IMG/VR virus record: IMGVR_UViG_3300031134_000466
Strand: one strand, 5' to 3'
DNA length: 64,000 nucleotides
Source: a virus
Lineage: Duplodnaviria; Heunggongvirae; Uroviricota; Caudoviricetes
Position numbers and translations under genes: made by a program. This document shows positions 6,620 through 62,312 of this stretch, piece after piece. Under the pieces are notes generated by a model. The model saw nothing but the letters and a program-made list of their open reading frames with translations. It was not told where the DNA came from and did no database searches. Numbering within the stretch: position 1 is the first letter of the stretch; each line of letters opens with the position of its first letter.

Positions 6620-8191
6620 ATGAAACTGTTCTTTGCTGGGTTGAACGACTCATTCACTTTACTTGCCTTCCGTTTCGCTAACGCAAAACCATGGATGCAA
6701 ATAGCAGGCTTACTCTTCTTGCTTGGTGCAATCGGGGCTATTGCAGCGTCGCTGCAGACAACCTCATTCATCAGAGCAATCATGACAGCAACTCTGCCCG
6801 ATGATCCGACAGCAGAGACAGCCAGAGAGTTACAACAATTCCTGTCTGTATACCTGGAAATGTATACGACAGGTAACATGGAAGTATTCGTAACAGTAGC
6901 TGTAGCTCTGCTGTTAGGTTCCATTATCTTCGTACCGTTCTCAGGGTACGTAATTCACGGTATGGTGTCCCATAGTGAAATGGTTATTGTCAAGAATGGT
7001 GACACTTATAAAATCGGTGACAGTGTTCTGTTCCAGGTTATTTCATCCTTCACCCTTATCCAGCTCACTGGGTTGACCATTGCTGCCCAGCTGATAACTT
7101 TCGACTCGGCCTACCCTTCCTACGCTGTCATTTTTGCTTGGGGTATCTGGGTGTTCATGACAATCGTTACTGCTTTAGTTTCCTGGGTTGTCGAGTTCAT
7201 TTCCCGTAAGTTCGGTCGCAAAATGAGACTGTTGTTCTTAGGCATGTTCGTAGCAGTACTTGGACTTGTTCTGCTGATTGACCCTAAGCACGGAACCACA
7301 TTGTTCGGTGGAGCTAACACCGTGTTCGACTTCTTGAATCAGTTAGCAACTGGTGATGGAAAACTGCTGGTTGCATCGTTGGTCATCATTGCAGGCTTGA
7401 CAGCTGTTGCCATTTCAGCGTTGTCTTTGATGGCGTCACATACATTACAAATTCCAGAACCTTTGACGGTTTCTAAGACCAATGAGAAGCAAATCTCTGG
7501 AAGCTCTGTTCCTTTGAGTCCATTAGTGCTACTTACTCGTTTACTCTTCCGTTACAGCACTGTAACCAAACCAGTCATGACTTCCCTTGCATTCTCTCTC
7601 ATCATTGTTCTTCTACTCAAAGGTGAAAATGCTTTAACCACAACAATGATTGTGTTACCTCTTGCTGTTGGTGTTTCTTTCGGAGCGAACATCTTTGGTC
7701 TGATTAGCGGTTCAATCAACTGGTTGTTGTCAATCAACAAATGGCGGAGCAAGATGTTGAACGCTGGAATGATTGTCATTCTTGCCTCAATCGTCATCAT
7801 CTACGCTATTGTTTACGGCGTTGGTTTAGCTATTGGAACCATCGAATGGGACCAGTTGGTAAAAGTGATTCCCGCACTTATTTCTGTGACATCAGCAACA
7901 ACAATCATCTCCATCTACCTTTCAGTGAAGAAGCCTTTACCATTCTCAGGTAAATCTCGTGAGAACCTCATTTCTTCACCCACAGCTTTGATTGGTTATG
8001 TGTTTGTGCTGCTTGTCGGTGCCGGCGGTGCTGGTAACGTTGCACTCTTTGCCCCATCCCCATCATCATGGATTATCGCAGGAACAACACTGTTCATCAG
8101 CGTCATGAGCTACTTGTTACTTTACCGTACATGGATGAATACTGAAAAGTACACTAAGCGACTGTTGAAAGAAACCATCAACGCCGGTTAA
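6620..8191 (+). CDS. Polytopic membrane protein, probable ABC-2-type permease partner
   Basis: ATG overlaps/abuts the ATPase stop (TAAATG coupling); at least 10 predicted hydrophobic helices. Confidence 0.55.
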   Translation: MKLFFAGLNDSFTLLAFRFANAKPWMQIAGLLFLLGAIGAIAASLQTTSFIRAIMTATLPDDPTAETARELQQFLSVYLEMYTTGNMEVFVTVAVALLLGSIIFVPFSGYVIHGMVSHSEMVIVKNGDTYKIGDSVLFQVISSFTLIQLTGLTIAAQLITFDSAYPSYAVIFAWGIWVFMTIVTALVSWVVEFISRKFGRKMRLLFLGMFVAVLGLVLLIDPKHGTTLFGGANTVFDFLNQLATGDGKLLVASLVIIAGLTAVAISALSLMASHTLQIPEPLTVSKTNEKQISGSSVPLSPLVLLTRLLFRYSTVTKPVMTSLAFSLIIVLLLKGENALTTTMIVLPLAVGVSFGANIFGLISGSINWLLSINKWRSKMLNAGMIVILASIVIIYAIVYGVGLAIGTIEWDQLVKVIPALISVTSATTIISIYLSVKKPLPFSGKSRENLISSPTALIGYVFVLLVGAGGAGNVALFAPSPSSWIIAGTTLFISVMSYLLLYRTWMNTEKYTKRLLKETINAG

Positions 8192-10758: not shown

Positions 10759-11367
10759 TTAGTCGTCAGATACTTGCTGCCACGCAACTGCAGCATCATT
10801 CCACTCCAGAGCATTGTCGATGTCACCAACCCATTCTCTTACTGATGGCAGCCGGTCACCATTCAAGAAGTTCCGCTTGATTTTCAAGCGTGGGACATAG
10901 AAGCCACCGACTTTTTCTAAGGAACTATGCAAGTTCTCAGTGGGAAGGAACTTGTCAAGGATAGCTGCAAATTCGGGCACAGCTAACCATAGATTGTTCA
11001 CGGAAAGGAACGGAGCAGTGTCAACATGGATAGCACGGTAGAAGTTTACGTCTGAATCGTACATGTAACCGCTTGCTATCCCACCAAAGATTTGCGGTTC
11101 AAATTTGGGGCGGTAAGTGACTTTTCTTGTTTCACTCAACGGAGCATCAATTTTTATCAAGTCAGGAACATATCTTGATGCAGACTTCTCTGTTTTTAGG
11201 TGAAGCAGGTAACCTGTTTGGTCCCAAAAGATTAGACTGTTAGGTACGCTTTTCATCTGTTTCTTGCTCAATAAGTCAAGTTTCGCAAGTTCAGATTTTA
11301 GACTCAACCGACTGATGTCAGGATCGTTCGATAGCTCTTTTGTGTAAGAGTGTGAGGTAATGTTCAT
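10759..11367 (-). CDS. Hypothetical protein
   Basis: ORF only. Confidence 0.45.
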   Translation of the reverse strand: MNITSHSYTKELSNDPDISRLSLKSELAKLDLLSKKQMKSVPNSLIFWDQTGYLLHLKTEKSASRYVPDLIKIDAPLSETRKVTYRPKFEPQIFGGIASGYMYDSDVNFYRAIHVDTAPFLSVNNLWLAVPEFAAILDKFLPTENLHSSLEKVGGFYVPRLKIKRNFLNGDRLPSVREWVGDIDNALEWNDAAVAWQQVSDD

Positions 11368-11369
11368 GA

Positions 11370-12155
11370 TTAGTTATTCACCGTTTCAAAGTAGTATCTA
11401 TTATCGTCATGTTCAACGAAGTGACGTTCAGAAATGTTCTCATTCCCATCTACATACACTTTCAGCTTCCCGCTTCGAACAGTTCCTTCTGTGATAACGG
11501 AAGACTCTCGTCTGGTGGTGCCGTATTCAGTAGAAGCAACATTGTAGTTAGTGAGAATCCATTTTTCGACATCAGTACTGCTGTTGTCAGTGAACCATCC
11601 ACCAGGTAGGAACACTGATACCACAGCCGCGACCGCAAAAATAGATGTCAGAAGAGCTACATGAGCTCCCAGCACATGACCAACAACCTCTTTCCTCTCA
11701 CCCTTAGAGAAGACAACAAAAACCATAGCTAACAAACCAGCAAAAATGACTATGGCCACAACTCGTGCCACCCAGGTGATGATAGACGTTGAACCATCAA
11801 CCCACTCTAAATATTGTGGGTTGGTATAGATCAGATGACCTTTTACCCGAGGTCCGAACAAACCAAGAGAAATAGAGGTGATGTAGAACACAACCCCCAG
11901 GATGGCTAACCAGATCAGTGCTTTTGATTTGGATTTAGAATAAGCAGTTCCAATGTCATTGGCAGTGTCTTTGAAAAATGCTTTACTGTCACCAATCATA
12001 TTTTCTGGACTCAGAGGATCAGTTGAAGTGTTGGAAACAGTTTTAGGCTCAGGCTTTTTCTCTTCAAAATCATTTTTGGAGAAGCCGGTAATAAGATCAT
12101 CAGACATAGTATGTGATCCTATCATGAGTGCATTAGACGCATGAATAAAAGTCAA
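11370..12155 (-). CDS. Membrane protein, unknown function
   Basis: Three hydrophobic segments in the central region; 3-nt spacing from downstream gene. Confidence 0.5.
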   Translation of the reverse strand: MTFIHASNALMIGSHTMSDDLITGFSKNDFEEKKPEPKTVSNTSTDPLSPENMIGDSKAFFKDTANDIGTAYSKSKSKALIWLAILGVVFYITSISLGLFGPRVKGHLIYTNPQYLEWVDGSTSIITWVARVVAIVIFAGLLAMVFVVFSKGERKEVVGHVLGAHVALLTSIFAVAAVVSVFLPGGWFTDNSSTDVEKWILTNYNVASTEYGTTRRESSVITEGTVRSGKLKVYVDGNENISERHFVEHDDNRYYFETVNN

Positions 12156-14394: not shown

Positions 14395-16512
14395 TTACAG
14401 TTCACGACGACCTGTACGCAGTTCACGAAGCATACGCTCGTAAGCATATCCTGTCATTTCAGCGTCATTGTAAGCACGGTGAGCGCCAAGGTAAGGAACA
14501 TTGTAGCGGGCAGTGAATGAAGAGAGCTTATCGTTCGGAACATCAGTCAGAAGACGACGAGACAGTTTCAAAGTGTCAAGAATTTTGATTTTCTTGTGCT
14601 TCACAGCATCAGCAAAACCAGGAACATGTGTGGACATCCAACGCTGTTCAAAAGTCTTGTTGTGAGCCATCATGATACCAACATTTGTCAGCTGGTCAAG
14701 AACAGCAGTACCTTCAGCAGGGTTCAAGAACTGACGCTTCTTCGCAATCTGAGTTTCAGTAATACCATGCACTTCACTGTTGCCTGTGCTGCGAGTCAGG
14801 AGAGCTTTCTTCGAAAGACCGTAAAGCTTGCTTGTCTTAGCTTTCTCAGTGTCATTACGAGTCAGAGTAGAGTTACGGTAGTTGGTACGAACGGATGCAC
14901 CATACTCGATGATGCTACCTGAAGTAGGCTGAGAACCGGCAGTTTCCAAATCAACACTCACATAGTCAGGAAGCGTTTCCTGCTTAGCTGCCGTGACGTA
15001 GAGGCTACGAAGCTGAGCCGCAACATAGGTTCGGTCTTTGCGATTCTCATCATCGAAGTTGCCAGCAAACTCCTGCTCAACAACCTTAGAATCAACACCA
15101 CGCATTGTTGCAACTTCAGTGAAGATTTCCTGCTTCTCTTTGTTACTCAAGCTGGAGTTCAGAGCGTTCTGAGAGAAACCACGAGCGCGGTTACGTCCTT
15201 CCCAAGTACCAGCCTTACGGGAAGCAAGCTCGGTGTTGAACTTCTTCACAGCTTCAAGGTTGCCAGCAGCTTCCTGCTCAAGCTCAGGAGTCATAGTGAA
15301 ATGGTATTCACGGTATTCACGGTCGTCAATGACAACTGCAACCATACCACGCTTGAAACCAGCAGCCTGAGCATACCAAAGAGTCTGAGCTCGGTAAGTG
15401 TCAGGAACACCATCCAAACCATCTTCAGGGTTACCCCATTTGCCAGCAACAGAAGCAGTCTTGATTTCGACAATACCGTCAGGGTTACCATCCTTGTCAG
15501 CCATCAGACCGTCAAAGTTAGCAAACTGGAACTCGTTCTCGTTGTGCTTCCAAGAAGACTTGCAGAAAGTGATGTTGTCGTCAGGGTTGTTCTGCACAAC
15601 CTGGAGGAAGATTCGCTTCTCCCAAGCGTTACCACGACCAGCCGCGCCAGCATACTCTTCGTTGTTCAGTGCCTGCTCAGCAACCTGCTCATCAGTGATG
15701 GGTTCAAGCTTGGACTGCATGATTTCTTCATAGCTGTTGTAAGCACCCTTGACTCGCTTGATGGCTCCAACATCTGAACCACCAATACCTTTCTGACGCT
15801 GCTCAAGCCATTCACGAGTACCTGACTCGAACTCAGCAGTCTTAGTGAGTTCATTCAGCGTCTCTTTGTCATACTCACGCCATTCGCCAGCTTCACGAAG
15901 ACGGTTCTCTTCAAGGTCGGCAAGGTGAGCCACAACAGGTGCTGCAACGTCTTTGTACTCGTTAATCTGACGGCGGAGGAGACTGACTTCTTCGTTGATG
16001 TCAATCATCGCAAGTTCCTTCTGACGAACATCTTCGTAAAGGAACGCAGGGTCTTCTTCCCACTTCTTCTTCAGAAGGTCACGGTCAGCTTTAGTCTCCT
16101 CAAGAAGCTGCATGTTTGCATCACGCTTCTCAAGCAGGGCAGTAAAGTCTTCAGAGTTGATACGGTCCTGGATGAAGCTTTCCATGGCTTCCTCATCACC
16201 TGATTCAATCAGGCGGGCAGCTTCAGCTTTATCCTCTTCAACGGTCTTCAGAGCTTTCTGGTGACCGTAGGAACTAACAGGAGTGTAGGTACGCTCCATA
16301 GCTTCCTTCAAAATAGACATAGCAAGCAGGCTCTCAACATCGTTTGTGTTGTTCAGCTGCTTCTCAACCAGCTCAGCATTCTTGTGCTGATGATACTGGT
16401 ACTCAGTCATGTGTTCTCCGTTTATCAGTGTGCATTTCTTCTGTGCAGGGCAACGGACCCAATCGCCTTGCCTCTTGCCTGATTGCTGTTTATGGTAGTT
16501 CTTCATGGTCAA
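14395..16512 (-). CDS. Dual exonuclease: YqaJ/lambda-Exo-like PD-(D/E)xK domain fused to C-terminal DnaQ-like DEDDh 3'-5' exonuclease, with N-terminal coiled-coil
   Basis: GIGGSDVGAI motif, DG...DGIVEIK, Y..Q.Q (YqaJ family); then DLETAG (Exo I), AHNKTFE (Exo II), HRAYNDAEMT (Exo III, DEDDh). Confidence 0.7.
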   Translation of the reverse strand: MTMKNYHKQQSGKRQGDWVRCPAQKKCTLINGEHMTEYQYHQHKNAELVEKQLNNTNDVESLLAMSILKEAMERTYTPVSSYGHQKALKTVEEDKAEAARLIESGDEEAMESFIQDRINSEDFTALLEKRDANMQLLEETKADRDLLKKKWEEDPAFLYEDVRQKELAMIDINEEVSLLRRQINEYKDVAAPVVAHLADLEENRLREAGEWREYDKETLNELTKTAEFESGTREWLEQRQKGIGGSDVGAIKRVKGAYNSYEEIMQSKLEPITDEQVAEQALNNEEYAGAAGRGNAWEKRIFLQVVQNNPDDNITFCKSSWKHNENEFQFANFDGLMADKDGNPDGIVEIKTASVAGKWGNPEDGLDGVPDTYRAQTLWYAQAAGFKRGMVAVVIDDREYREYHFTMTPELEQEAAGNLEAVKKFNTELASRKAGTWEGRNRARGFSQNALNSSLSNKEKQEIFTEVATMRGVDSKVVEQEFAGNFDDENRKDRTYVAAQLRSLYVTAAKQETLPDYVSVDLETAGSQPTSGSIIEYGASVRTNYRNSTLTRNDTEKAKTSKLYGLSKKALLTRSTGNSEVHGITETQIAKKRQFLNPAEGTAVLDQLTNVGIMMAHNKTFEQRWMSTHVPGFADAVKHKKIKILDTLKLSRRLLTDVPNDKLSSFTARYNVPYLGAHRAYNDAEMTGYAYERMLRELRTGRREL

Positions 16513-16555
16513 TCTCTAACCTACCGCATTAACGTTTGAACCGCAAATCGAGCTT

Positions 16556-18429: not shown

Positions 18430-21147
18430 ATGGCCACCCTCATCGGCGTATCAGGAAAAATTGCGTCAGGTAAAGATTACTTGACTGACAAGCTTGTAAA
18501 CGAACTGAAACGTCTTGGTTTTACCATCGACTACACAGCCTTCGCTGCACCCCTGAAGCAGGAACTCAACGAAATCATCTCTCTGATTCGAGCTTTCCCT
18601 GAACAGGATGAACTGACTCTTTCTTTCTCCATCGCTCGTAATCTGGACATCAACTACGATGATGCTCTTCTGATTGCTACTAATCTGAGAACAGAAGTGC
18701 TTGCAGATGAAACTCTCAACGGTTACTCACGAACAGTCAAAATTCGTGAATCTCTTCAGTATCTTGGTACAGAGATTCGCAGGAAGCAGCGTCCTGAATA
18801 CTGGACTGACTTGTTCTTGAACTTCGTCAACAATTCAGAAACAGATTTCATTTTCGTTTCAGATGCACGTTTTCCTAATGAAATGGACACGGTTGTCGAC
18901 AATCAAGGTGTTGCTCTACGTCTTGACATTCCAGAAGAAGTTCTTGCAGAGCGTCGAAACAAGCGTGACGGCATCAAATACACTGATGAGCAGTTGAATC
19001 ATATCTCAGAAACTGCACTGGATGATTACACCAAATTTGACATGATGATTGGTGTGCAGTTCAACGAACGTGAAATCGTAGAGAATATCCTGAAAAAAGT
19101 TGAACGACTTCAGGAACTTCCTGCAAAAGCTTCTCGCGTCCTGAAAGCCAAAATCGCAGAGCATACACCTTCAGTGTCAGATAAGAAAGATGTTTACCCA
19201 GAGGTGAATTTACCTGAAGGCCAGTACAAAGTGTTGTCTTTGTTTGCAGGTGCAGGTGGATTAGATTTAGGTTTTGAGTTAGCTGGATTAGAAGCAGTTC
19301 ACGGTAAAGAAAAAGTGGACGCTGCTTACAAAGACAAAAAAGCATTTGACGAGCTCCGCAAAGAGAACCTCATTCACACGGTCTACGTAAATGACAACTT
19401 CAAAGATGCAATAGCTTCCTACCGTCAGAACTTTCCTGAAACGTTTATTGACGAACGAGATATCAAAAAAATCAGCAGCTTCCCTGATGCAGACCTTCTG
19501 TTAGGTGGATTCCCTTGCTTCCCTAAAGGAACAGGTGTAGCTACAGAGACAGGTTACAAAAACATTGAAGATGTCGAGAAAGGTGATTTTGTTCTCACTC
19601 ATGAAGGTCGTTACCGTGAAGTAACAGACACCATGACACGCAATGTGAACAAATCAGCCACTCTACATGCTTACGGTTCTCTTCCTTTGGTCTCAACGGT
19701 GAATCATCCTTACTGGGTGAAAGAAACTGTCGATTCTGAACCTAAATGGGTTCATGCTGAGAACATTCAGCCAGGTTGGTTTGTGTCTCATCCAATCAGC
19801 ACATTCAGTACAGATGAAGTAACCGAAAAAGAAGCCAAGTTTGCTTACTTAGCCGGCGTCTTCGCTCAGTGTGGTACAAAAACTTTGAACGACGAGCACA
19901 AGCCAAGCTATCTCACTCCTTACAATGATGAGGAGTTCCTGGCTTTGCTGGCTGAAATTGATGCTGTCTGTTCAAAAGAAGGCAAAAACGTCATCGTCCA
20001 CAGTGAACAGCTGAACAAGATGATGAAATTGTTCGGAACTACCAAATGGAACAAAGTCATTCCTGAAGAGGTCCACCAGAAACCACGAGCTTGGCAGAAA
20101 GCTTTCCTTGACGGCTTCCTGTTCCACAACTCTGACCAGGAAGTGCACAGCAAGAACTTGGCTGTTGGCGTGGCTCGAATTATTCGTAGTTTGAACCCTA
20201 CACAGGATGTTATCGTGTCCTCACCCAAATACAGTTCCTGGATTGTAACTGCAACTGACACTACCGTAGCTCATCATGATGACAACTATGTATGGGTTCC
20301 TGTGGAGCGTTTGCAAGTAAGAAACGAAATGGGAGTACTTCCTGTTTACGATATTACTGTAGCCGAAGACGAATCATTCGTAGCAGATGGATTTGTAGTT
20401 CACAACTGCCCTGGCTTCTCAGCAGCAGGTCTTCGCATGTTAGATGACCCTCGCAACTTCCTGTACCTGCATTTCGTACGAGCTGTTGTTGACGCTCAAC
20501 CAAAGATTTTCGTAGCAGAAAACGTAAAAGGTCTACTCACTCATGGTCAAGGTGAAGCTTTCAACCAGATAGTCGAAGACTTTGCAGCAGCAGGTTACAC
20601 CATCTACTACAAGCTGATGAAAGCAATTCAGCATGGTGTACCTCAGATGAGAGAGCGATTGATTATTGTTGGTGTGCGAAACGACATTGATTTTGAATAC
20701 CAGCATCCTGCTGCCACTCATGGTGAAGGTCTACTTCCATACAAAACTCAAAGAGACGCTTTCTACGATTTGAGGGACCTGAACGATGAACACTACGAAG
20801 GAGACTTCTCTTCTCGCTACCGTTCCAGAAGGTTCAAACTGGACTGGGATGTACCGTCAAAGACCATTTTGGCAACAGGGCGGCACCTGCCTTTGCACCC
20901 TGACGGAGTGCCTCAGGAGAAGCTGGAGCAGGACTTGTGGAGTTTAGACGCTGCAGACCGTAGATTCACTGTAAGAGAAGCTGCACGAATCCAGACATTC
21001 CCTGACTGGTATGATTTCGTGACAACCTCTCGCGGAACAACCAACACAGTCCTGGAGAAACAGTACCGTCAGATAGGTAACGCTGTTCCTGTCGAACTGG
21101 GACGAGTTGTTGCTGAACCTATTGTTCAGTTCCTGAAAAGTCTGTAA
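18430..21147 (+). CDS. Fusion protein: T4 gp1-like dNMP kinase (N-terminal) + DNA (cytosine-5)-methyltransferase interrupted by an intein
   Basis: N-term GVSGKIASGKDY...AAPLKQEL and SDARFPNEMD match dNMP-kinase P-loop and DxR motifs; MTase motif I FAGAGG, motif IV GGFP-C...PGFSAAG (split by intein), ENV (motif VI), QMRER (VIII), GNAVPV (X); one continuous frame. Confidence 0.85.
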   Translation: MATLIGVSGKIASGKDYLTDKLVNELKRLGFTIDYTAFAAPLKQELNEIISLIRAFPEQDELTLSFSIARNLDINYDDALLIATNLRTEVLADETLNGYSRTVKIRESLQYLGTEIRRKQRPEYWTDLFLNFVNNSETDFIFVSDARFPNEMDTVVDNQGVALRLDIPEEVLAERRNKRDGIKYTDEQLNHISETALDDYTKFDMMIGVQFNEREIVENILKKVERLQELPAKASRVLKAKIAEHTPSVSDKKDVYPEVNLPEGQYKVLSLFAGAGGLDLGFELAGLEAVHGKEKVDAAYKDKKAFDELRKENLIHTVYVNDNFKDAIASYRQNFPETFIDERDIKKISSFPDADLLLGGFPCFPKGTGVATETGYKNIEDVEKGDFVLTHEGRYREVTDTMTRNVNKSATLHAYGSLPLVSTVNHPYWVKETVDSEPKWVHAENIQPGWFVSHPISTFSTDEVTEKEAKFAYLAGVFAQCGTKTLNDEHKPSYLTPYNDEEFLALLAEIDAVCSKEGKNVIVHSEQLNKMMKLFGTTKWNKVIPEEVHQKPRAWQKAFLDGFLFHNSDQEVHSKNLAVGVARIIRSLNPTQDVIVSSPKYSSWIVTATDTTVAHHDDNYVWVPVERLQVRNEMGVLPVYDITVAEDESFVADGFVVHNCPGFSAAGLRMLDDPRNFLYLHFVRAVVDAQPKIFVAENVKGLLTHGQGEAFNQIVEDFAAAGYTIYYKLMKAIQHGVPQMRERLIIVGVRNDIDFEYQHPAATHGEGLLPYKTQRDAFYDLRDLNDEHYEGDFSSRYRSRRFKLDWDVPSKTILATGRHLPLHPDGVPQEKLEQDLWSLDAADRRFTVREAARIQTFPDWYDFVTTSRGTTNTVLEKQYRQIGNAVPVELGRVVAEPIVQFLKSL
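19516..20406 (+). mobile_element. Intein (297 aa) with LAGLIDADG homing-endonuclease motifs, inserted at the catalytic Pro-Cys of MTase motif IV
   Basis: Starts with Cys (CFPKGTGVATETG...GDFVL block A), block B TVNH, two dodecapeptide motifs (YLAGVFAQCGT; FLDGFLFHNSD), ends VVHN followed by +1 Cys; excision restores GGFPCPGFSAAG. Confidence 0.8.
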
Positions 21148-23380: not shown

Positions 23381-23433
23381 TATGGTGTGCAGCAGATAAG
23401 ATTTTTCTTGCTATCTGTTAGGAATACAAAACT

Positions 23434-24246
23434 ATGTGCAAACGCAAACCATACCCTCGTTGCAGCTACCATGCTCGCATCAAACTTGAAGCTGCAGAAA
23501 AGTCTGGTGATCTTGAACGCATCAAGCTTGCAAGAAGGAACTATTTCACTTCATTAGCTGGTATTGCTGACCTCAAAGCTCAGGGTAAAGATGCATTAGC
23601 TGCAAAATATGAGACTCGTAGAGCAAATCTCATTGCTCAAGCTGAACGTGAGACTAACCTCCGCAAGACACCCCTGGTTTTGGCGTTGGATGTAGACAAC
23701 ACCAGTGGTGACTTCACAGAATCCATTCGTAACCATGTCATGAAGACACAAGGACTTACTCCTGAACAGGCTGAAACACTTCTTCCTAGCCCTCCAACTC
23801 ACTACTCTTTCGTAGACTCAGGCTGGTTCACTGACGTTAACTCATTCCTGGATGCTTTCCATTCAGCGGAAGAGAATGGTGTTTACTCCAAGATGAAAGC
23901 TTTTGACGGAGTAAGCAAGACTCTTCGCACTTTGGTCAGTAATCGTGACGTTGAAGTTCGTGTTGTGACGGCCCGTGGTAACAGATGGAATGAAGAGACC
24001 CGTCAGTGGTTGCGTCGTCATCGTATTCCTTTCACTTCCATCACTCACACTGAGGACAAAGAGAAAGTCCCAGGTATCGATGTGTACATTGATGACTCTG
24101 ACAAGCAGATTAACACTCTGCAGAAGAACGGTAAGACAGTTATTGCGTTCGAGAATGCATACAACGCAACTGTTCCTTCTAAGTATCGTGTAAAGAAGTG
24201 GAAAGAAGTGCCGGCAGTTCTGAAACTCATCGCACAAGCCAAATAA
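23434..24246 (+). CDS. HAD-superfamily phosphatase carrying the N-terminal Cys-KP-RCS-H module shared with the three ADP-ribosyltransferases
   Basis: N-term MCKRKPYPRCSYHA; HAD motif I LDVDNT, motif II VVTARG, motif IV YIDDSD. Confidence 0.7.
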   Translation: MCKRKPYPRCSYHARIKLEAAEKSGDLERIKLARRNYFTSLAGIADLKAQGKDALAAKYETRRANLIAQAERETNLRKTPLVLALDVDNTSGDFTESIRNHVMKTQGLTPEQAETLLPSPPTHYSFVDSGWFTDVNSFLDAFHSAEENGVYSKMKAFDGVSKTLRTLVSNRDVEVRVVTARGNRWNEETRQWLRRHRIPFTSITHTEDKEKVPGIDVYIDDSDKQINTLQKNGKTVIAFENAYNATVPSKYRVKKWKEVPAVLKLIAQAK

Positions 24247-24260
24247 CAAACCATCAATAT

Positions 24261-24300
24261 GGCGGTCCAGGATGCTAATTGTCCTGGGCCGCCCTTGTTT
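24261..24300 (+). terminator. 12-bp stem-loop (one G.U) followed by T-tract
   Basis: ggcggtccagga ... tcctgggccgcc cttgtttt. Confidence 0.5.
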
Positions 24301-24391
24301 TCTCAATTAGGTGTTATGGGAACCTGTGAAAAGCTTGTTAATTACCGATACTTTTTTCAGCTACCTAACCCCCTTAGAGAGAAGAATCTGT

Positions 24392-26083
24392 ATGTCTGCT
24401 GGCAGCACGCACCCGACTATTCAAAACTACACAAAAATACGAGCAGCTTTTAGCTCCTCACAAGCCGCTATCGACTTAGCTTCCATCATGGTGGGTGTCA
24501 TCGTAATCGGACTTATTGGTGGAGTAATCTCTGCCACAGTATTCGCTATCATTCCTTGGGCACAGGACAAAGCAGCGAAAGCATCTCTCTCCTCAGTACA
24601 CACAGCAGAATCAGCATATGCTGGGTTCAGTGTTGGTGATGACGGAGAGAAGAAACAAACTTTTGGTAACTACGACGACTTGAAAGCTGAACATGGAGGT
24701 TTGCTTCAAGAATCTGAACGTCTAATAGTTTCCACCGGAACAAACAACAAAGACTGCTATGTTGCTGTCATTACCTCAGAGACAGGAAACCGTTTCTGGA
24801 TTGACAACAAGATCAGTGCACCTCGCATGTACCAAGAAGGTGACCAGTCAGAGTGTCTGAACCTTGAAGACATGTTCGGTGATGACAACGGTGGTATTGG
24901 ATACAACTCCTCCCTTGATGGTACTTACTTCGAAGGGCAAGGTTTTGCAGCTGTTGTTCACATTCGTAACAGTGCAATCAACTATGGTGTTGAACCAGAC
25001 CCAACTTGTGAGCCTACTGACCCAGCCACACAGGTAACACAGGTAAAAGCTTACTTAGACAGTGAAGAAATTGAAATTGCTGGTAGCTGGGAATACATGC
25101 AATCATCAGACGGAATTCAGACAGCAGTAGGCATCCAAACCACTAACGGATACATTGGTGCTACCACAGAGGAAGCTCAAACTTTCGCTGAAAGAGGACA
25201 AGTAATTTTCTTACCAGCTGGTTGTGCTGATTCAATCACCATCAACGTATCAGGAACATCCACTCCTCCAGGTGGTGACGACGGCGGTGGTGACCAACCT
25301 GTTGAACTATGCAGCAAGTACAATAACATGTTCACTGACGCCCAAACAACCAGTGAAACCACTGGAACTACTTTCTATGTTGACCCAAGCTGCAACACCA
25401 GCATGACTGCAATGTTCACATCCTTTGAGTCGATGTTCCAAACAATGGGACAGCCAACACTTACCGCTCGTACTGACGGTTGCTGGTCAGAACAGGGAAC
25501 TTATAAGAAAGTTGCCTGTGACCCAACAGGACAAGCTTACTACTACAGCCCAGGAAGCATGGAACAGTTCTGGACTTCAGCTAACGGAACAACAGTTGAA
25601 TTGTACCTCAACGGTTCAAGTACCCCATTCTTCTCCCAGGCATCAAACACTCCAAGTGAGTTCTACTACGAAGTTCCTCGTGAAGATAGGACAGATTCCT
25701 ACACTCAGAGCTCATACAACGCTGACGCTCCAACTGTCGGAATTGATGTCACAAGTAGCTACAGAATGACCAACTTCTACCGTGCAGCTAAACCAGCTGC
25801 AGGAACAACTTCAAACTCTTGCTTGGATGAACTTCAAGCGGGTAAGCTTCCAACCACTTACCAAGGCGAGTATGGTGTAGCTAACTGCCAAGGTGAAGAT
25901 GACTTCCGTATCTATGACTGGGACATCTCAGGTAACTTCGGTAATGCCGATGAAGCAACTTACGAAAACATCAAAACAGTCAGTGAACAAGGCGGTATGG
26001 TCAAGTTCACAACAACAGAAGGTAAAACTTCAACCATCCAGCTGAACCCAGGAGCTTTGAACCCAGAACCACAAGCTTCATAA
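24392..26083 (+). CDS. Pilin/pseudopilin-like anchored surface protein, paralog C, with Cys-rich C-terminal domain
   Basis: SSSQAAIDLASIMVGVIVIGLIGGVISATVFAIIPWAQDKAAK...VHTAESAYAGF matches first 60 aa of paralogs A/B; rest unrelated, at least 10 Cys; ATG 24392 chosen over the longer TTG-initiated ORF at 24311. Confidence 0.55.
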   Translation: MSAGSTHPTIQNYTKIRAAFSSSQAAIDLASIMVGVIVIGLIGGVISATVFAIIPWAQDKAAKASLSSVHTAESAYAGFSVGDDGEKKQTFGNYDDLKAEHGGLLQESERLIVSTGTNNKDCYVAVITSETGNRFWIDNKISAPRMYQEGDQSECLNLEDMFGDDNGGIGYNSSLDGTYFEGQGFAAVVHIRNSAINYGVEPDPTCEPTDPATQVTQVKAYLDSEEIEIAGSWEYMQSSDGIQTAVGIQTTNGYIGATTEEAQTFAERGQVIFLPAGCADSITINVSGTSTPPGGDDGGGDQPVELCSKYNNMFTDAQTTSETTGTTFYVDPSCNTSMTAMFTSFESMFQTMGQPTLTARTDGCWSEQGTYKKVACDPTGQAYYYSPGSMEQFWTSANGTTVELYLNGSSTPFFSQASNTPSEFYYEVPREDRTDSYTQSSYNADAPTVGIDVTSSYRMTNFYRAAKPAAGTTSNSCLDELQAGKLPTTYQGEYGVANCQGEDDFRIYDWDISGNFGNADEATYENIKTVSEQGGMVKFTTTEGKTSTIQLNPGALNPEPQAS

Positions 26084-26371: not shown

Positions 26372-27676
26372 ATGGGAAAAATCATTGAAGAGACAATGCT
26401 TGTCATGGTTGACACAAAGAACAACAACAACAAGTTCTACCATGTCACATTGGATGATGCTAACGTCGTCACCAAGCGCTGGGGACGTGTAGGAGCTGAA
26501 GGAGCGAGTTCCGTCGAGACAACAGGCAAGATTGGTTACGAGCGAGCCATCAAGTCCAAAGAGAAAAAGGGCTACAAGGTCTCACCTATTGTTAGCACAG
26601 GTGTCACAGTCAAGAGTTCTGTCAACCACCTTGACGAAGTAGCTAAGAAGTTTCTGTCCAAGGACAGCGGAGACAGCCTTATCAGCAACCTCATTGACCG
26701 ACTCATCGCATCAAACCAGCACCAGATTATGGAGCAGTCCGGTGGTATGATTAAGATTACCGACGACGGAACCGTAAAGACCGCTCTCGGTGTTGTTGAC
26801 CTTTGCTCCATCAACTCTGCCCGAGACCTCATTGGTGAGATGCAGAAGAAGAAAACAGGGCAGACCAAGCTCCTGGAAGATTACCTCACCCTCATTCCTC
26901 AGAACATTGGGTACCGTCGTGGTTGGGAAGAGGACTTCCTGAAGACGGAAAACTTTGCCAAGCAGATGGACTTCTTGAAGCAGCTTGAGGATTCTGTGCA
27001 GTGGCGAAACACCACCGCACAGGTCACCACAGATGACGAAGACAAGTTCGACATCGATGCTCACAAAGACCTGTTCCGCATGAACCTTGCGAAGATTTCC
27101 GACAGCGGAAAAGACTTCGACCGTATCAACAAGATGTTTAAAGAAACACGCAACAACATGCACACATCACGTAACCTCAAACTTGTGAACGTGTATGCAG
27201 TGGAAGATGTCAAGGGCAAGGAAGCTTACGAAGCTGCTCAGAAGAAGTATGGAAACGTACGTGAACTCTGGCACGGAACAAAAGCCTCCAATGTTCTCTC
27301 CATTCTCACAAAGGGATTGTTCGTGCCTAACGCAGGTAGCGGTATCCCTGTGACAGGAAGAATGTTCGGTGATGGTGTCTACTTCAGTGACCAGAGCACC
27401 AAAAGCTTGAACTACGCCAACGGTTACTGGGATGGTTCACGCACCAGCCAGAACTGTTTCATGCTTCTGAACGATGTTGTCATGGGTCATGAGTACCGCC
27501 CTCAGCGTTGGGACTACAGCTCTCTCCGTCAGGCACACAAGGGCGTTGGAACTTCAGGTAAGCCTTACCAGTCCATCAGCGTTCGTGGTGGAACCTGTAA
27601 CGTTCGAAACAACGAAATGATTATTTGGAACACTGACCAGGTGGCTGTACGTTACCTCTGCGAATTTGGTAGCTAA
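26372..27676 (+). CDS. Poly(ADP-ribose) polymerase (PARP)-like protein: WGR domain + helical regulatory region + catalytic domain with H-Y-E triad
   Basis: WGR motif KFYHVTL...VVTKRWGRVGAEG...KKGYKV; catalytic LWHGTKASNVLSIL (His), GVYFSDQSTKS (Tyr), YANGY, NEMIIWN (Glu) in PARP order. Confidence 0.85.
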   Translation: MGKIIEETMLVMVDTKNNNNKFYHVTLDDANVVTKRWGRVGAEGASSVETTGKIGYERAIKSKEKKGYKVSPIVSTGVTVKSSVNHLDEVAKKFLSKDSGDSLISNLIDRLIASNQHQIMEQSGGMIKITDDGTVKTALGVVDLCSINSARDLIGEMQKKKTGQTKLLEDYLTLIPQNIGYRRGWEEDFLKTENFAKQMDFLKQLEDSVQWRNTTAQVTTDDEDKFDIDAHKDLFRMNLAKISDSGKDFDRINKMFKETRNNMHTSRNLKLVNVYAVEDVKGKEAYEAAQKKYGNVRELWHGTKASNVLSILTKGLFVPNAGSGIPVTGRMFGDGVYFSDQSTKSLNYANGYWDGSRTSQNCFMLLNDVVMGHEYRPQRWDYSSLRQAHKGVGTSGKPYQSISVRGGTCNVRNNEMIIWNTDQVAVRYLCEFGS

Positions 27677-28399: not shown

Positions 28400-28538
28400 A
28401 CATCTATATTCGGTTCAAAAGAACAAAATAACACTTAGATAACAGGCTATTGATCGGATGTAGAGAGGATGACATGTTTCTATAGTGCGTGTATCTCAGA
28501 TAATCTAAGGTTGTAATTCGCCTTGTTAGACATAAACT

Positions 28539-29579
28539 ATGACCACTGCTACTAAATGTGCCAAACCAAAAGGGGTATATTGCCGTTTGCACAACCCTGA
28601 ACCTCGTGGGTATGCTTCTGCATCAGAAGCGTTAAATAAAGCAGAGCAGGACTTCAACAAAGCCAACCCGATCAAATCTTCTTCTCCTGGTGTTTCTTTT
28701 CATAAAAACGGTGAGACTCGCACATTGCACAAAAGTGTTCCAGAGAACATTGCTGACCATATTGCTTTGAATCAAGAACAACTGTCTCACTTGTCAGACA
28801 TGCAGAAGAAAGCTTTGAACGGTTACACCGGCTTTGCTGCAGGTGTTTGCAATAGTGTGTTGTTAGCAAAAGAATTCGCTTATGAGTATTACGAAGATGC
28901 CCCTCTATGGAAAGAAGCCCCAGGAGGAGCGTGTGACTTTGTTTCTCGTGAAGATTTAGTTGACTACATGGAAACAATGGATGGTATCCTTGCTTCCCGC
29001 CAGGAACAATCCCGAGTTCTATACCGTGGTATTCCTATTTACTCAGAACTGCATGACGAGATTGGTAATGGCATAGGTAAAAAGCTGCCTTTCGCTGATG
29101 CTACTGGCTTAGCAGAGGGTTTGAGTGAATATTACAAGCCTGGTACTGTCATTAAGCATGACCATTACTTGTCCACAACAGCATCAGCGTATTATGCAGC
29201 TGACCGTACAGACAATTCCATCGGGACAAAAAAGAGCTATTACGATAGCAATGATGTACCAGTCGGTATTGTCTTTGAGCTGAAAACCAATGCTGGTTTG
29301 GATGTTACAGCTGCAGCTCGTCATCATTCTTATGAACGTGAAGTGGTGTTACCTCGTGAAACTTACTTCAAAGTTGTCAACGTGGACGTGAATCCACAAG
29401 CTTATGACACTGTTTCAGGATTCGATACGCTCAACCATCCTGAGGAGCGAGAGCAGAAAACTTTCACTCGCTTAGCTGCTGTTGTTCAGATGGTCGAAGT
29501 AGACAAAAACGGCAAAGAAATAACAGGTACTGCACCTCATAATCCAGAGAGAAAAATCAGCGACATCATTCCTGGATGA
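28539..29579 (+). CDS. Mono-ADP-ribosyltransferase (R-S-E class) with N-terminal Cys-KP-C-H module
   Basis: N-term KCAKPKGVYCRLH; Arg motif VLYRGI, Ser-Thr motif YLSTTAS, catalytic YEREVVLPRETYFKVV (E-x-E). Confidence 0.7.
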   Translation: MTTATKCAKPKGVYCRLHNPEPRGYASASEALNKAEQDFNKANPIKSSSPGVSFHKNGETRTLHKSVPENIADHIALNQEQLSHLSDMQKKALNGYTGFAAGVCNSVLLAKEFAYEYYEDAPLWKEAPGGACDFVSREDLVDYMETMDGILASRQEQSRVLYRGIPIYSELHDEIGNGIGKKLPFADATGLAEGLSEYYKPGTVIKHDHYLSTTASAYYAADRTDNSIGTKKSYYDSNDVPVGIVFELKTNAGLDVTAAARHHSYEREVVLPRETYFKVVNVDVNPQAYDTVSGFDTLNHPEEREQKTFTRLAAVVQMVEVDKNGKEITGTAPHNPERKISDIIPG

Positions 29580-29610
29580 CAGCACCTTTGTTGGATTACT
29601 CCAAATATAG

Positions 29611-29660
29611 TTAAAAAGCTGTGGCGCCACCTCTACAAAGGTGGCGCCACAGCTTTTTAA
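29611..29660. terminator. 21-bp perfect stem-loop between convergent genes
   Basis: ttaaaaagctgtggcgccacc tctacaaa ggtggcgccacagctttttaa. Confidence 0.55.
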
Positions 29661-29884
29661 CTTCTCATTTTCCTCTTATTAGCCATCTCCAATATTCTGT
29701 TGTATTCAACAACCTGCAGTAGAGCAGCACGTAGAGTATCTTCTAAGAACGCACCGTCTTTGTTTCGGTAGTCGGTACTGACTGAGATGTGATTGCCGTT
29801 CACAGTGAAGCGGATGAAGTTGGCTTCATGAGGCTGTGAGGCCGGGGATGGTTTTCCGAGGTGGAGTGATACGTTTTTTGACAT
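29657..29884 (-). CDS. Small hypothetical protein (75 aa)
   Basis: ATG at 29884 with GAAAGGA RBS; longer ORF to 29953 lacks RBS. Confidence 0.35.
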   Translation of the reverse strand: MSKNVSLHLGKPSPASQPHEANFIRFTVNGNHISVSTDYRNKDGAFLEDTLRAALLQVVEYNRILEMANKRKMRS

Positions 29885-30049
29885 GGTTATCCTTTCAGTT
29901 GGTGTTATTGACTGAAAAGATAAATTTGCGTTACATGTCTTAGATAGTATCACATTCGTTTAGGACTCGGACAGAATCACTTATCGGCTACTTGCTCGAA
30001 AGTGTGATGTTTTCAACTAAGCTGCATTCAAATATGGTAACCTGTAATT

Positions 30050-30460
30050 ATGACTAACGAAAACCTGACCATGCATGATGTCGAAGTTGATGACCAAGTA
30101 GAAATTATTTTCACTAACGGTGACCGAATCACAGGGACTGTGACTTCTCCTAACATCAGCTCCACAATGCGTATCCAGACCATTTTTGCTGGGGACACAT
30201 ACATCTCTTTGCACAACGTAGACAGCTACACGGTAAAGAAGGTCCACGACAAGCAGGAACCTTTCGAACCTGAAGGTGAAGGAGAAATCTGGGGTTACAT
30301 CCAGTACCAGGTTCGAGGTTTCGCTGCAATCAACAAGAAGCAGGTCCACCGTGACGCTAAGGGGCTATGGCACATGGATGGCAAGTCAGGAACCTGGGCG
30401 AGACTTCAGTTCAACATTGGTCAGGACTTCACATTTGTTCAGTTGGTGGAAGCTAACTGA
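30050..30460 (+). CDS. Hypothetical protein
   Basis: ORF only. Confidence 0.45.
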   Translation: MTNENLTMHDVEVDDQVEIIFTNGDRITGTVTSPNISSTMRIQTIFAGDTYISLHNVDSYTVKKVHDKQEPFEPEGEGEIWGYIQYQVRGFAAINKKQVHRDAKGLWHMDGKSGTWARLQFNIGQDFTFVQLVEAN

Positions 30461-30499
30461 GGTTGGTAGCATATGCTTACATCTTGTTAGAGATTAGGT

Positions 30500-31465
30500 A
30501 TGTGCTACCCCAAACCTGGTCCTCGCTGTTCAGCTCATGCTGCAGTTAAACTGGCGACTGTAAAACTCGCTTCTACCAGCGGTAGTCAAGATTTTGCCGA
30601 GTACTTAGCTCATCAGGAGCGTCTTGAAGAAGCTCAGCTGGAGTATGACATCACGCCAGCAGGTTTGAAAGATTTACAGGATTTAGTGGGTCAACGAAAT
30701 GACCCTGACGCTGAGCTCCGTTATTCCAAAGCTAAAGCCCTGAGAGCAAAGAAGTTGGCTTTGTTGCATGAAGACCAGAAACAAGAGCAAGGTCATACTC
30801 TTGCAAGGGTTCAAGGGGTAAATGAAGATTTTTGTTCTGATGAAATTGTTCGTTCTAACAAAGATGCTGGAATCACATCCGCAGCTTTAGTAGCTGAAGC
30901 TGAACCGTGGTTTAATCAGTTGAACGATGATGAACTTTCTCAAATGCACTGGATGACCGACTATGGTTCAATGGAAGCTAATACGCACATCGCAGGAACC
31001 AATGACCATAAACGTTTTGGTGGTCTATTCTCTGCAGAGAACTTGGAATCTCGTATGGTTCAAGTTGACTCGGCTTTGAGTAAGTTTGAGTCACATCATG
31101 ATGAAGTTGTCTACAGGGGCTTTCGTGAAGGCTCTCTTCCCTCTGCTATGGCAAACAACTACCGGGTATCAGATGATGTGAAGCAAGCTGCAGTTCTGAA
31201 ATCTTTCACCGTAGGTGAAGTCTACAAGTCTGATTTCTACATGCCAACTTCTGTACAGCCTGAAGAGGCTGCTCGTTTTGCTGATTTCGGTTGCGTCATG
31301 GAAATCAAAACCCGCAAAGCTGCTCCTGTATCTGCCATTTCTGAAGTTCCCCGTGAGTCAGAAAAACTGATTGGTCGTAACAGTGAATTCAAAGTCGTGG
31401 CAATCAAAGAGAACATCATGTACGGCATTAAGAGAATGACTGTTGTTCAGTTAGAGCAACTCTAA
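30500..31465 (+). CDS. Mono-ADP-ribosyltransferase (R-S-E class) with N-terminal MCYPKPGPRCSAHA module
   Basis: Arg motif VVYRGF, Ser-Thr motif YMPTSV, catalytic PRESEKLIGRNSEFKVV (E-x-E). Confidence 0.7.
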   Translation: MCYPKPGPRCSAHAAVKLATVKLASTSGSQDFAEYLAHQERLEEAQLEYDITPAGLKDLQDLVGQRNDPDAELRYSKAKALRAKKLALLHEDQKQEQGHTLARVQGVNEDFCSDEIVRSNKDAGITSAALVAEAEPWFNQLNDDELSQMHWMTDYGSMEANTHIAGTNDHKRFGGLFSAENLESRMVQVDSALSKFESHHDEVVYRGFREGSLPSAMANNYRVSDDVKQAAVLKSFTVGEVYKSDFYMPTSVQPEEAARFADFGCVMEIKTRKAAPVSAISEVPRESEKLIGRNSEFKVVAIKENIMYGIKRMTVVQLEQL

Positions 31466-51757: not shown

Positions 51758-52729
51758 TTAAATTTCTCGCAGCTGCACAATTGTCAGTTCAGTTGCTTCA
51801 CCTTTTTTATTGACCCTTTTGACTTTCACATCATTAGCAACAACTTCGAATTTTGCACCACGAGGAATGATGAACTCATACTCTCTTGGACCTTGCGATG
51901 AAATAGCTGTGATTGGGGCTCCACTTTTTGTAAGAATCTGTAAAGAAACATTGATGTTGTCTTTGGAAGGTAAATCTTGAGGATTCAAACTTGTCGATAA
52001 GAAGAATTTAGGTTCGTAAGTGCTACCAACAGGGAAATGTTTGTCGAGGTTTTGAGCGTCATCACTTGAATGATATCCTTTTTCATCATAAAGATGATGA
52101 CGGCGGTAAACCATCACGCCTTCTTCTGCTGGTTCGTGTTTAGCAAAAGCATCATCCAGGATAGTTACAGCTGCATCCAACGTTTCAGGTGCAACATTTT
52201 TTGCGTACGGATTTGTTGAAGCTGAAAGATGGCCGTTGATGTCAGCATAGCCATCTTCTGAATACCAGCGAAGAGTAGCTATTTCAGTATCATCCAGTTT
52301 GGCACTCCAGTTTTGGGAATCTGCCATGCTGTTCAACAGGTCAGCATGTTTGTAATGCATCTCTTCAAGAGTGTCACCAGTTTCGAAAAACGTCGGAGAA
52401 GTGTAAGCAGCTTTTTGTGCTTTTTTGTGGGTGATGACTTTACGATCCGCAACAGCAGCTAATCTTCTGGCTCGTTCTTGAGAAAGCGCTTCGTATTCTT
52501 CTGCATGCCATTCCTGCGTTGGATTCTTTTTGATCTGTCTTTCCAAAGACTTTAGATAAGCTGGTGTTAGTTTGTACTCTGCTTCAGCTTTTCTTCTTAC
52601 CGCTATTAGCTTCTCAAGCTCTGGGTCTTTGCGGTTGTCCATGAAAGCACTGAGAACCGCTTGATGAGCTTTAGCGTAGGTGGCTGCAGCATGAGCTGAA
52701 CAACGGGGACCAGGTTTTGGGTAACACAT
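51758..52729 (-). CDS. Mono-ADP-ribosyltransferase (R-S-E class) with N-terminal MCYPKPGPRCSAHA module
   Basis: Arg motif MVYRRH, classic STS motif FLSTSLN, catalytic PREYEFIIPRGAKFEVV (E-x-E); N-terminal 100 aa paralogous to ORF 30500. Confidence 0.7.
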   Translation of the reverse strand: MCYPKPGPRCSAHAAATYAKAHQAVLSAFMDNRKDPELEKLIAVRRKAEAEYKLTPAYLKSLERQIKKNPTQEWHAEEYEALSQERARRLAAVADRKVITHKKAQKAAYTSPTFFETGDTLEEMHYKHADLLNSMADSQNWSAKLDDTEIATLRWYSEDGYADINGHLSASTNPYAKNVAPETLDAAVTILDDAFAKHEPAEEGVMVYRRHHLYDEKGYHSSDDAQNLDKHFPVGSTYEPKFFLSTSLNPQDLPSKDNINVSLQILTKSGAPITAISSQGPREYEFIIPRGAKFEVVANDVKVKRVNKKGEATELTIVQLREI

Positions 52730-52811
52730 GCTCCATTTCTAACAGCTTGACATCCCATCATTTATCCGATACTGTTGTTACTATACGAACCGAATAGCAG
52801 ATTGAGGTTAT

Positions 52812-54080: not shown

Positions 54081-54121
54081 TTTTTGTATTCTGCTGTCTG
54101 TTTCTTTGTTAGTAATAGGGC

Positions 54122-62238: not shown

Positions 62239-62312
62239 TCACAAAAACGTGCTTTTTCGTCAATATGACGATATACTGTAATAAGAATGGTCTAAGGAAG
62301 GAAACCCGTATC

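Follow-up and report, generated by a model that had tools for sequence, protein, structure and literature searches.

The capsid-targeting sequence of phage T4 (IPI-III, Alt) is a cysteine-free leader of about 10-20 residues that the prohead protease cleaves off. Head-packaged ADP-ribosyltransferases (ARTs) are also on record, as are effector sets delivered together with DNA by phages and conjugative elements (PMC9503650, PMC5512222), and in the polyvalent proteins 2-15 domains are linked in one polypeptide (PMC5512222). In this work, we analysed a 64,000-nt stretch of viral DNA (IMG/VR record IMGVR_UViG_3300031134_000466; hereafter the window, to which all positions refer) and found that it encodes three members of a new N-terminal domain family, attached to a HAD-superfamily 5'-nucleotidase and two ARTs, whereas a fourth protein, also an ART, has only the short cysteine clasp with which the domain begins.

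The domain in the window proteins

An earlier sequence-only reading had proposed that four otherwise different enzymes of the window share one N-terminal module. The four open reading frames (ORFs) are present as quoted there, at 23434-24246 (+), 28539-29579 (+), 30500-31465 (+), and 51758-52729 (-), and their products, named here by the lower coordinate, begin with MCKRKPYPRCSYHA (23434), MTTATKCAKPKGVYCRLH (28539), and MCYPKPGPRCSAHA (both 30500 and 51758). An independent profile hidden Markov model (HMM), made from 144 metagenomic family members with the window proteins excluded, matched 30500 (E = 2.2e-25), 51758 (E = 3.7e-23), and 23434 (E = 6.3e-10) from residue 1 to residues ~78-97, an extent that excludes a chance similarity limited to the first 6-8 residues. 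Protein 28539 gave E = 1, which rules it out as a full member carrying the helical domain, so the proposal stands for three of the four enzymes and is reduced to the clasp for the last.

The module covers residues 1 to ~96 of 30500 (30500..30787, +; the MCYPKPGPRCSAHA clasp and four helices, profile positions 1-95), residues 1 to ~97 of 51758 (52439..52729, -), and residues 1 to ~78 of 23434 (23434..23667, +; the MCKRKPYPRCSYHA clasp and helices, profile positions 1-87). The copy in 23434 is a divergent subtype (K3, Y7), and the alignments place the representative P0119 in the same subtype. The clasp of 28539 occupies residues 7-18 (28557..28592, +; CAKPKGVYCRLH) with no helical domain behind it. 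It follows the exact family register C-x4-G-x2-C-x2-H, with C, G at +5, C at +8, and H at +11 (hhalign P = 5e-4), and it is kept among the orthologues of this protein as KC[SA]KP.G.YCRLHNP.P, which argues that the likeness is not due to chance. The clasp residues C2, P8, R9, and C10 are present in 30500, 51758, and the K3/Y7 variant of 23434, while 28539 keeps C, G, C, and H but not P8 and R9; the Cys...Cys-x-x-His spacing that had been called conserved is thus in register in all four proteins.

Regarding the catalytic domains, the whole gene at 23434..24246 (+) encodes the module followed by a HAD-superfamily 5'-nucleotidase (NT5C, PF06941; 63.7 bits against a cutoff of 24.8, residues 142-267), with motif I DxDxT (DVDNT) located in LALDVDNT at residues 83-90 and matches to phrog_420 and phrog_415 over residues 77-264. 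The gene at 30500..31465 (+) joins the module to an R-S-ExE ART (ADPrib_exo_Tox, PF03496; 57.1 bits, residues 135-313), and the one at 51758..52729 (-) joins it to an Alt/VIP2-type ART (74.6 bits; phrog_802, Alt-like); both exceed the PF03496 cutoff of 23.4. The gene at 28539..29579 (+) encodes the clasp and a divergent ART that falls below this cutoff (19.9 bits), although most of its 109 homologues carry PF03496. The ART motifs are readable in the sequences as YRG/YRR, STS/STT/PTS, and EYE/ESE/ERE. The contrast between nucleotidase and ART domains is therefore real, but 30500 and 51758 are not otherwise different enzymes, being full-length paralogues (BLASTP E = 6e-30; 28% identity). Their first 15 residues are identical and encoded with differing synonymous codons, which points to selection on the peptide and not on the DNA.

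Extent, conservation, and predicted fold of the family

The domain spans about 75-95 residues and begins at the initiator methionine with a near-invariant clasp, M-C-Y-x-K-P-G-P-R-C-S-x-H-A, followed by four helices. Word-indexed homologue searches with the module profile returned one protein only, and an exhaustive profile search was required; covering 1.84 billion representatives, it yielded 640 cluster representatives at E <= 1e-3, including 107 at E <= 1e-10. The counts of conservation and of C-terminal domains given below refer to the best 150 of these 640 representatives. The match starts at residue 1 in 149 of them, the remaining one having a mis-called start. M1, C2, P8, R9, and C10 are conserved in 150/150, P6 and G7 in 149/150, Y3 in 148/150, S11 in 143/150, and A14 in 138/150. 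H13 is found in 133/150 and is otherwise replaced by S, Y, E, or D, so that the histidine is the part of the reported spacing that does not hold throughout the family.

Behind the clasp, the helix (A/E)EY.(I/L)TPA.LK.L noticed earlier in 30500 and 51758 proved to be a family-wide motif, EY..TPAG.K.L, which the HAD protein has as well and in which T55, P56, G58, and L62 each reach 90% conservation or more. The domain continues to ~95 residues with another helix, whose arginine (R...L.A.K) is ~90% conserved. Right after helix 4, about one third of the members have a K..D.GD(I/V).H motif (residues ~95-105; ADRKVITH in 51758), which could serve as a fourth metal ligand or as a processing site.

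The module had not been recognised from its sequence, and it is indeed absent from Pfam, NCBIfam, and PHROGs, with no match among solved or viral structures, the structural searches returning only generic bundles. All ten clusters that we looked up are unnamed metagenomic proteins. A pattern search plus tblastn in IMG/VR confirmed nothing, with 0 matches to the exact DNA pattern, and the INPHARED phages gave no credible module match, just hits to endonuclease VII with E of at least 6. 

An AlphaFold2 model of residues 1-105 of 51758, computed with a 51-sequence alignment, has a predicted local distance difference test (pLDDT) score of 91.3 and a predicted template modelling (pTM) score of 0.76, with helices at residues 11-31, 36-53, 56-68, and 73-94. 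A beta-bridge pairs residues 2 and 10, the two invariant cysteines, and an earlier 73-residue model agrees. The model thus places the paired cysteines on top of a four-helix bundle. It is plausible that a metal or a disulfide closes the loop, perhaps with ligands supplied in trans. The classical zinc knuckle that had been suggested fared poorly: with two invariant cysteines, a histidine conserved at 89%, and no further cysteine within residues 15-110 in 130/150 members, a four-ligand site is unsupported, and in the 150 representatives the spacing C-x7-C-x2-H without a fourth conserved Cys or His does not correspond to a CCHC knuckle.

C-terminal domains and exchangeable N-terminal tags

The Pfam families most often found behind the module were ADPrib_exo_Tox (44), ART (19), LRV (10), LRV_2 (9), and HEAT (4), with DUF7226 and RNase_T occurring twice and AAA_33 (a kinase family), LPD29, YqaJ, Zeta_toxin, and HD_4 once each. 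In all, 17 Pfam families occurred behind the module, and about half of the representatives showed no Pfam match. Nine of the 150 are stand-alone proteins shorter than 130 aa, such as P0001 with 84 aa. Some module genes form tandem arrays, with six in 10 kb on the 10.4-kb contig Ga0209100_1002825 (L081), four each at loci L036, L077, and L030, and three in 16 kb at L012. A constant N-terminal domain, unrelated C-termini, and arrays of 3-6 genes constitute the architecture of polymorphic effectors or toxins, and the earlier suggestion of a polymorphic effector family is borne out by the 640 representatives and their many unrelated C-terminal domains.

The N-terminal cysteine tags are also exchangeable between proteins. 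The 109 homologues of ART 28539 display at least three alternative N-termini on one catalytic body: class A has a C-x7-C-x2-H clasp behind a variable leader of ~4-20 residues, class B starts with MCRGGKDG..KRCK..., and class C with KYHI.P....C.A..G.C.(Y/F)GS...HF. Likewise, adjoining genes at locus L017 encode an ART and an unrelated 229-aa protein that both start with ..RC.AKDPATCS.H.P. Two other enzymes of the window have class-C-like N-terminal Cys pairs (YH...C-x4-5-C), namely a RecE/YqaJ-RNase T exonuclease (14395-16506, -), which starts with MKNYHK..WVRCPAQKKC, and an Rnl1-type RNA ligase (54122-55363, +), whose product starts with ..PYHHSDGTNCWTKDCS.

Upstream DNA element

The sequence GTTAGNNAT occurs 14 times in the window, and in six of these cases the distance to the ATG of a following long ORF is 5 nt (8 nt at the HAD gene). 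All six Cys-pair genes of the window have it in this position, compared with 0/59 other genes (Fisher p = 1.2e-8). The copies are GTTAGGAAT at 23417..23425 (+), 8 nt before the ATG of 23434; GTTAGACAT at 28525..28533 (+), 5 nt before that of 28539; GTTAGAGAT at 30486..30494 (+), 5 nt before that of 30500; GTTAGAAAT at 52735..52743 (-), 5 nt before that of 51758; GTTAGTAAT at 54108..54116 (+), 5 nt before that of the RNA ligase gene; and GTTAGAGAT again at 16512..16520 (-), 5 nt before ATG 16506 of the exonuclease gene. The position of this last copy predicts that ATG 16506 is likely the true start of the exonuclease gene, called as 14395-16512.

The association extends beyond the window. In a set of 76 independent metagenomic loci, 20/89 module genes, compared with 7/436 other ORFs, have the element 3-9 nt upstream of their start (p = 2e-11), and GTTAG is found within 50 nt of 37/89 module genes against 28/436 others. 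Conversely, at loci L009-L094, 33 of the 36 non-redundant ORFs behind the element start with a Cys pair, against a background of 58/464; this includes ~14 of the 17 non-canonical ORFs, several of which are mutual orthologues. Some other loci have the element 30-40 nt upstream, followed by a Shine-Dalgarno sequence, and it was not found within ~40 nt upstream of the high-GC (guanine-plus-cytosine) chromosomal copies and the one Rhodococcus plasmid copy inspected. No conserved -35 box is present at the GTTAGNNAT sites, and the element is probably a -10-only promoter giving leaderless mRNAs in the window genome. The tagged genes of the phage-like genomes may form a co-regulated set marked by it, a regulon, the association being observed and the function deduced from it. 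A terminator-like hairpin follows the HAD gene (24261..24293, +), and similar hairpins at 29612-29659 and 31442-31460 follow 28539 and 30500, respectively, so each of these tagged genes looks like a separate transcription unit.

Genomic carriers and gene neighbourhood

The window has a GC content of 45% and no DNA match among the deposited phages of INPHARED. It encodes a PARP+WGR protein, two RNA ligases, PNKP, an RNR subunit, a nicotinamide adenine dinucleotide (NAD) synthetase, a nucleotidyltransferase, DnaK, NucS, RNase H, the RecE/YqaJ-RNase T exonuclease, an intein-split kinase-methylase, and three pilin-like proteins. Its genome appears to measure ~0.78 Mb and those of its relatives 0.73-0.89 Mb. 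A syntenic relative (L013; JGI 3300055143 Ga0540644_0000002) of 776,377 bp is ~97% identical at the single protein compared, and a second assembly has 776,559 bp. Canonical members of the family occur on contigs of 725, 789, 791, 879, 883, and 885 kb, most of which carry 3-5 of them, homologues of ART 28539 reach contigs of up to 1.0 Mb, and near-identical contig sizes recur across samples (relatives including L022, L025, L041, L044, L046, and L066). Some module genes adjoin arrays of 23-39 partly redundant tRNAs, the contigs concerned being 215-791 kb long; a 215-kb contig from a human-skin metagenome has module genes beside 24 tRNAs and also beside 11 tRNAs and a transfer-messenger RNA (tmRNA). 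The redundant tRNA arrays, scattered chaperone genes, and dense orphan ORFs suggest that the carriers are megaphage-like genomes. A cellular origin of the window, either in a member of the CPR (candidate phyla radiation) or in a small actinobacterium, is less likely in view of the same features and the tmRNA. If these carriers are phages, they would exceed the ~735 kb that a 2026 review gives as about the largest known phage genome (PMC13282480).

The domain has carriers of three other kinds. It is present in Micrococcales chromosomes of Citricoccus, Agrococcus, Demequina (two copies), and Microbacterium, where the copies are flanked by genes for an integrase, a DNA methylase, TrbL/VirB6, and a NikA-like protein, in linear megaplasmids of Rhodococcus, and on contigs with WhiB, SSB, and FtsK-like genes. 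Taken together, the carriers comprise megaphage-like genomes, integrative/conjugative regions, and linear plasmids, all of them mobile and with a link to Actinomycetota. In the plasmid NZ_CP142144.1 of Rhodococcus sp. PD04 (L095, locus 6001-7164), RefSeq starts WP_272269927.1 downstream of the module and leaves the MCKPKPGPRCTPHM... N-terminus unannotated; such downstream start calls may help to explain why the family has no name. A telomere-proximal location in the Rhodococcus plasmids was considered and discarded, the positions being mixed. No type VII secretion genes were noticed near tagged genes. The families that recur among 150 neighbour proteins include RNA ligases, PNKP/HAD_SAK_2, AAA_33, further ARTs, and DsbA-like thioredoxins.

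Several neighbouring features deserve mention in their own right. Three pilin-like proteins of the window (1636-2751, 2847-4235, and 24311-26083, all +) combine large, variable C-terminal domains with an atypical prepilin-type N-terminus, ..SSKAAIDLASIMVGVIIIGLI..; one of their genes lies directly downstream of the tagged HAD gene, and 724-2442 of L001 is a further case. Citricoccus (L003) and Demequina (L006) have canonical GFTLIE pilin genes flanking their module genes. With pilin-like genes adjacent at just ~4 of 10 independent loci, a strict association with type IV pilin genes was discarded. The genes for WGR+PARP (26372-27676), NAD synthetase (58101-59624), and a cytidylyltransferase-like protein of the NMNAT type (62265-63158), all on the + strand, suggest a NAD-centred island; the WGR+PARP gene lies between tagged ART genes, and a TTGCAA-16-TATAAT promoter ends 6 nt before its ATG. 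Between its homologues of 28539 and 30050, L013 carries one more ART gene with a class A tag (11062-12072), which the window lacks; in the window, 29580-30050 instead contains a strong bidirectional hairpin with a 20-bp stem (29612-29659) and a small minus-strand ORF. The gene at 18430-21147 (+) encodes a 905-aa fusion of a deoxynucleoside monophosphate (dNMP)-kinase-like domain and a C5 cytosine DNA methylase split by a Hint/intein, as Pfam matches DNA_methylase in two stretches around Hint_2 and Intein_splicing. The NucS endonuclease (NucS_N + NucS_C) and DnaK of the window are encoded apart from their usual operon partners, and a lone GrpE gene adjoins a module gene at L009. The N-terminus of the window DnaK presumably resembles that of M. 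tuberculosis DnaK.

Possible functions of the domain

We tentatively prefer to regard the domain as an address or adaptor tag on a co-regulated, polymorphic set of effectors. The domain, with a clasp that is probably metal-stabilised, would dock co-expressed and otherwise unrelated effector enzymes onto one common partner, and on entry of the element into a cell these could then be loaded and delivered or be put to work jointly; the tag would then do the job of the MuF domain, the T4 capsid-targeting leader, and the polyvalent-protein fusions of other phages. Loading and delivery are favoured by two observations. In cultured phages, the nearest relatives of the 51758 ART domain are fused to a minor-capsid (MuF) domain or to a head protease, so the module occupies the position of a packaging domain, and the effector repertoire corresponds to that of proteins which phages and conjugative elements are believed to deliver along with DNA. 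In addition, the upstream element shared by the tagged genes argues for their co-expression. A virion-packaging or injection signal, as first suggested from the sequence, is a plausible hypothesis.

Several findings weigh against an address tag of this kind. Pfam and PHROG scans found no capsid, portal, terminase, or tail gene in the 64-kb window, no structural or type IV secretion protein is among the 25 commonest families listed for the 150 neighbour proteins, and what surrounds the tagged genes is genes for RNA repair and NAD. Carriers without a capsid, namely plasmids and integrative/conjugative regions, have the family too, so a capsid-specific signal cannot account for everything, and the clasp hardly varies across genomes of 36-69% GC, as would be expected of a host partner that is conserved more than of a virion partner that evolves fast. 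Modules that stand alone, such as P0001, have no cargo, and a sigma-70 scan calls no promoters at the GTTAGNNAT sites. The clasp offers just two invariant cysteines, with His13 replaced in 11% of members, and both its metal binding and the megaphage nature of the carriers are things that we infer.

Some of these points are better accommodated by the main rival, docking to a host target, which we nevertheless consider somewhat unlikely. Here, clasp and bundle would attach to a single hub conserved in actinobacteria (for example, RNA polymerase, the ribosome, or a chaperone) and so gather different enzymes at this host machine, after synthesis inside the cell and without packaging or transfer. 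A near-identical clasp in phage-like genomes, integrative/conjugative regions, and plasmids over that range of GC content would reflect a partner conserved in the hosts, stand-alone modules and LRV/HEAT scaffold fusions make sense as binders or inhibitors, and the surroundings of the genes are of the RNA-repair and NAD type, not structural. However, the NT5C nucleotidase, the exonucleases, and the kinases act on small molecules or nucleic-acid ends and would not need a protein hub, the nearest phage ARTs bear capsid domains at the same position, and the differing, exchangeable tags on orthologous ARTs fit routing labels better than one binding surface.

A further proposal, rather unlikely in our estimation, treats the Cys clasp and GTTAGNNAT-N5-ATG as the marks of a dedicated cargo regulon of actinobacterial megaphages larger than 0.75 Mb. 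Unrelated enzymes (ARTs, nucleotidase, exonuclease, and RNA ligase) would be made from leaderless mRNAs and either sorted through their exchangeable Cys-pair labels by a putative machine, whose task might be capsid loading, ejection, or the import of proteins into a compartment, or zipped into a non-covalent polyvalent complex. If true, this would be a protein-addressing system without a described counterpart.

Two lesser rivals concern the clasp itself. The first, which we deem improbable, is an assembly domain in which two Cys, with or without the His, from each chain form an inter-subunit metal site resembling the Rad50 zinc hook, so that separate effectors co-assemble into a non-covalent 'polyvalent' complex. 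It would account for the two invariant cysteines and the scarcity of others in residues 15-110, for the several members per genome, tandem arrays, and apparent co-regulation, and for a domain repertoire that overlaps that of polyvalent proteins (LPD29, Zeta toxin, ART; PMC5512222), but the AlphaFold2 monomer is already a confident closed four-helix bundle, and class A clasps exist without any bundle. The second, very improbable, is a knuckle whose basic clasp binds DNA or RNA ends and steers end-processing enzymes and nucleic-acid-modifying ARTs to their substrates. The clasp net charge is always +1 to +4, the median isoelectric point (pI) of the module is 9.1, nucleic acids are the substrates of many partners (RNase T, YqaJ, AAA_33/PNK-like kinases, HAD phosphatases, and an RNA ligase whose Cys-pair tag is a different one), and RNA-repair genes are neighbours; yet the module as a whole has net charges between -9 and +16 and hence no conserved basicity, known CCHC knuckles differ in spacing and ligand set, LRV/HEAT and stand-alone members do not fit, and the structural search matched no nucleic-acid-binding fold.

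It is scarcely credible, finally, that the segment has no protein function of its own and is either left over from recombination that puts a cassette of promoter and start before different genes or acts through the nascent peptide or through control of translation. In favour of this, the upstream element is always found with the first codons and at a constant distance from them, and the proline-rich clasp (PKPGP) could slow translation. However, synonymous sites differ where amino acids are invariant, a ~95-residue fold is predicted at pLDDT 91 with conserved core positions far from the start, and the domain persists in high-GC copies from bacteria and plasmids that lack the element; this conservation at the protein level largely excludes such readings.

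The pairing of tag and element offers a testable handle on how giant phages route effectors, and foreign cargo might be loaded if the tag is a delivery label. The protein tag and the fixed-distance DNA element together provide a simple rule to list the whole effector set of such genomes. The family, large (640 clusters), almost entirely metagenomic, and unrecognised by the libraries searched, ties the domain to diverse host-modifying enzymes of actinobacterial phages, plasmids, and integrative elements.

Comparison with known systems

The closest parallel is provided by the fusions of MuF (SPP1 gp7) with toxins, for example, the minor capsid-ART protein of mycobacteriophage McProf. As in our family, a constant N-terminus precedes variable effectors, ARTs are the commonest cargo, and there are several members per element; the MuF-ART fusions are also the proteins most similar to the ART domain of 51758 (26-28% identity over residues 75-297). 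In contrast, the ~95-aa clasp and helical bundle described here is unrelated to MuF in sequence and fold, the family is found in plasmids too, and the tagged genes are not beside head genes, either in the 64-kb window or among the 25 commonest families of the 150 neighbour proteins. No MuF, portal, or other capsid domain was detected in the four proteins or the 150 representatives by Pfam, or in the four by PHROG.

The T4 capsid-targeting sequence resembles the module in being a short conserved leader at the extreme N-terminus of unrelated proteins, including an Alt-type ART, in a set that appears co-expressed. It differs in that the clasp of the module is followed by a folded domain and that the module is not known to be cleaved; no sequence similarity between the two is known. 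Polyvalent proteins (Iyer et al. 2017, PMC5512222) have the same effector repertoire (ART, Zeta-like kinase, HD, LPD29, and nucleases) and the same carriers (phages, conjugative elements, and plasmids), whereas here each effector is separate and has the same small N-terminal domain. The module is not mentioned in that paper, and the passages of the NAD-ADPr paper retrieved by a term search hold no description of it.

The LXG/WXG100 polymorphic toxins likewise combine a helical N-terminal domain with a conserved turn (TPAG in our family), polymorphic enzymatic C-termini, and paralogue arrays. They lack a counterpart of the cysteine clasp at residue 1, the carriers of the module are mostly phage-like genomes, and neither the four proteins nor the 150 representatives gave a Pfam match to LXG or WXG100. 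In zinc knuckles and the Rad50 zinc hook, as in the clasp, two Cys close a short loop and a His is close by, the Cys of the clasp being paired in the AlphaFold2 model, but the spacing is C-x7-C-x2-H here compared with the retroviral C-x2-C-x4-H-x4-C, and the clasp has three candidate ligands, one of them variable. What is new, therefore, is the undescribed domain and its unusual coupling to an upstream element at a fixed distance, while a constant N-terminal handle on variable effectors is of a known kind.

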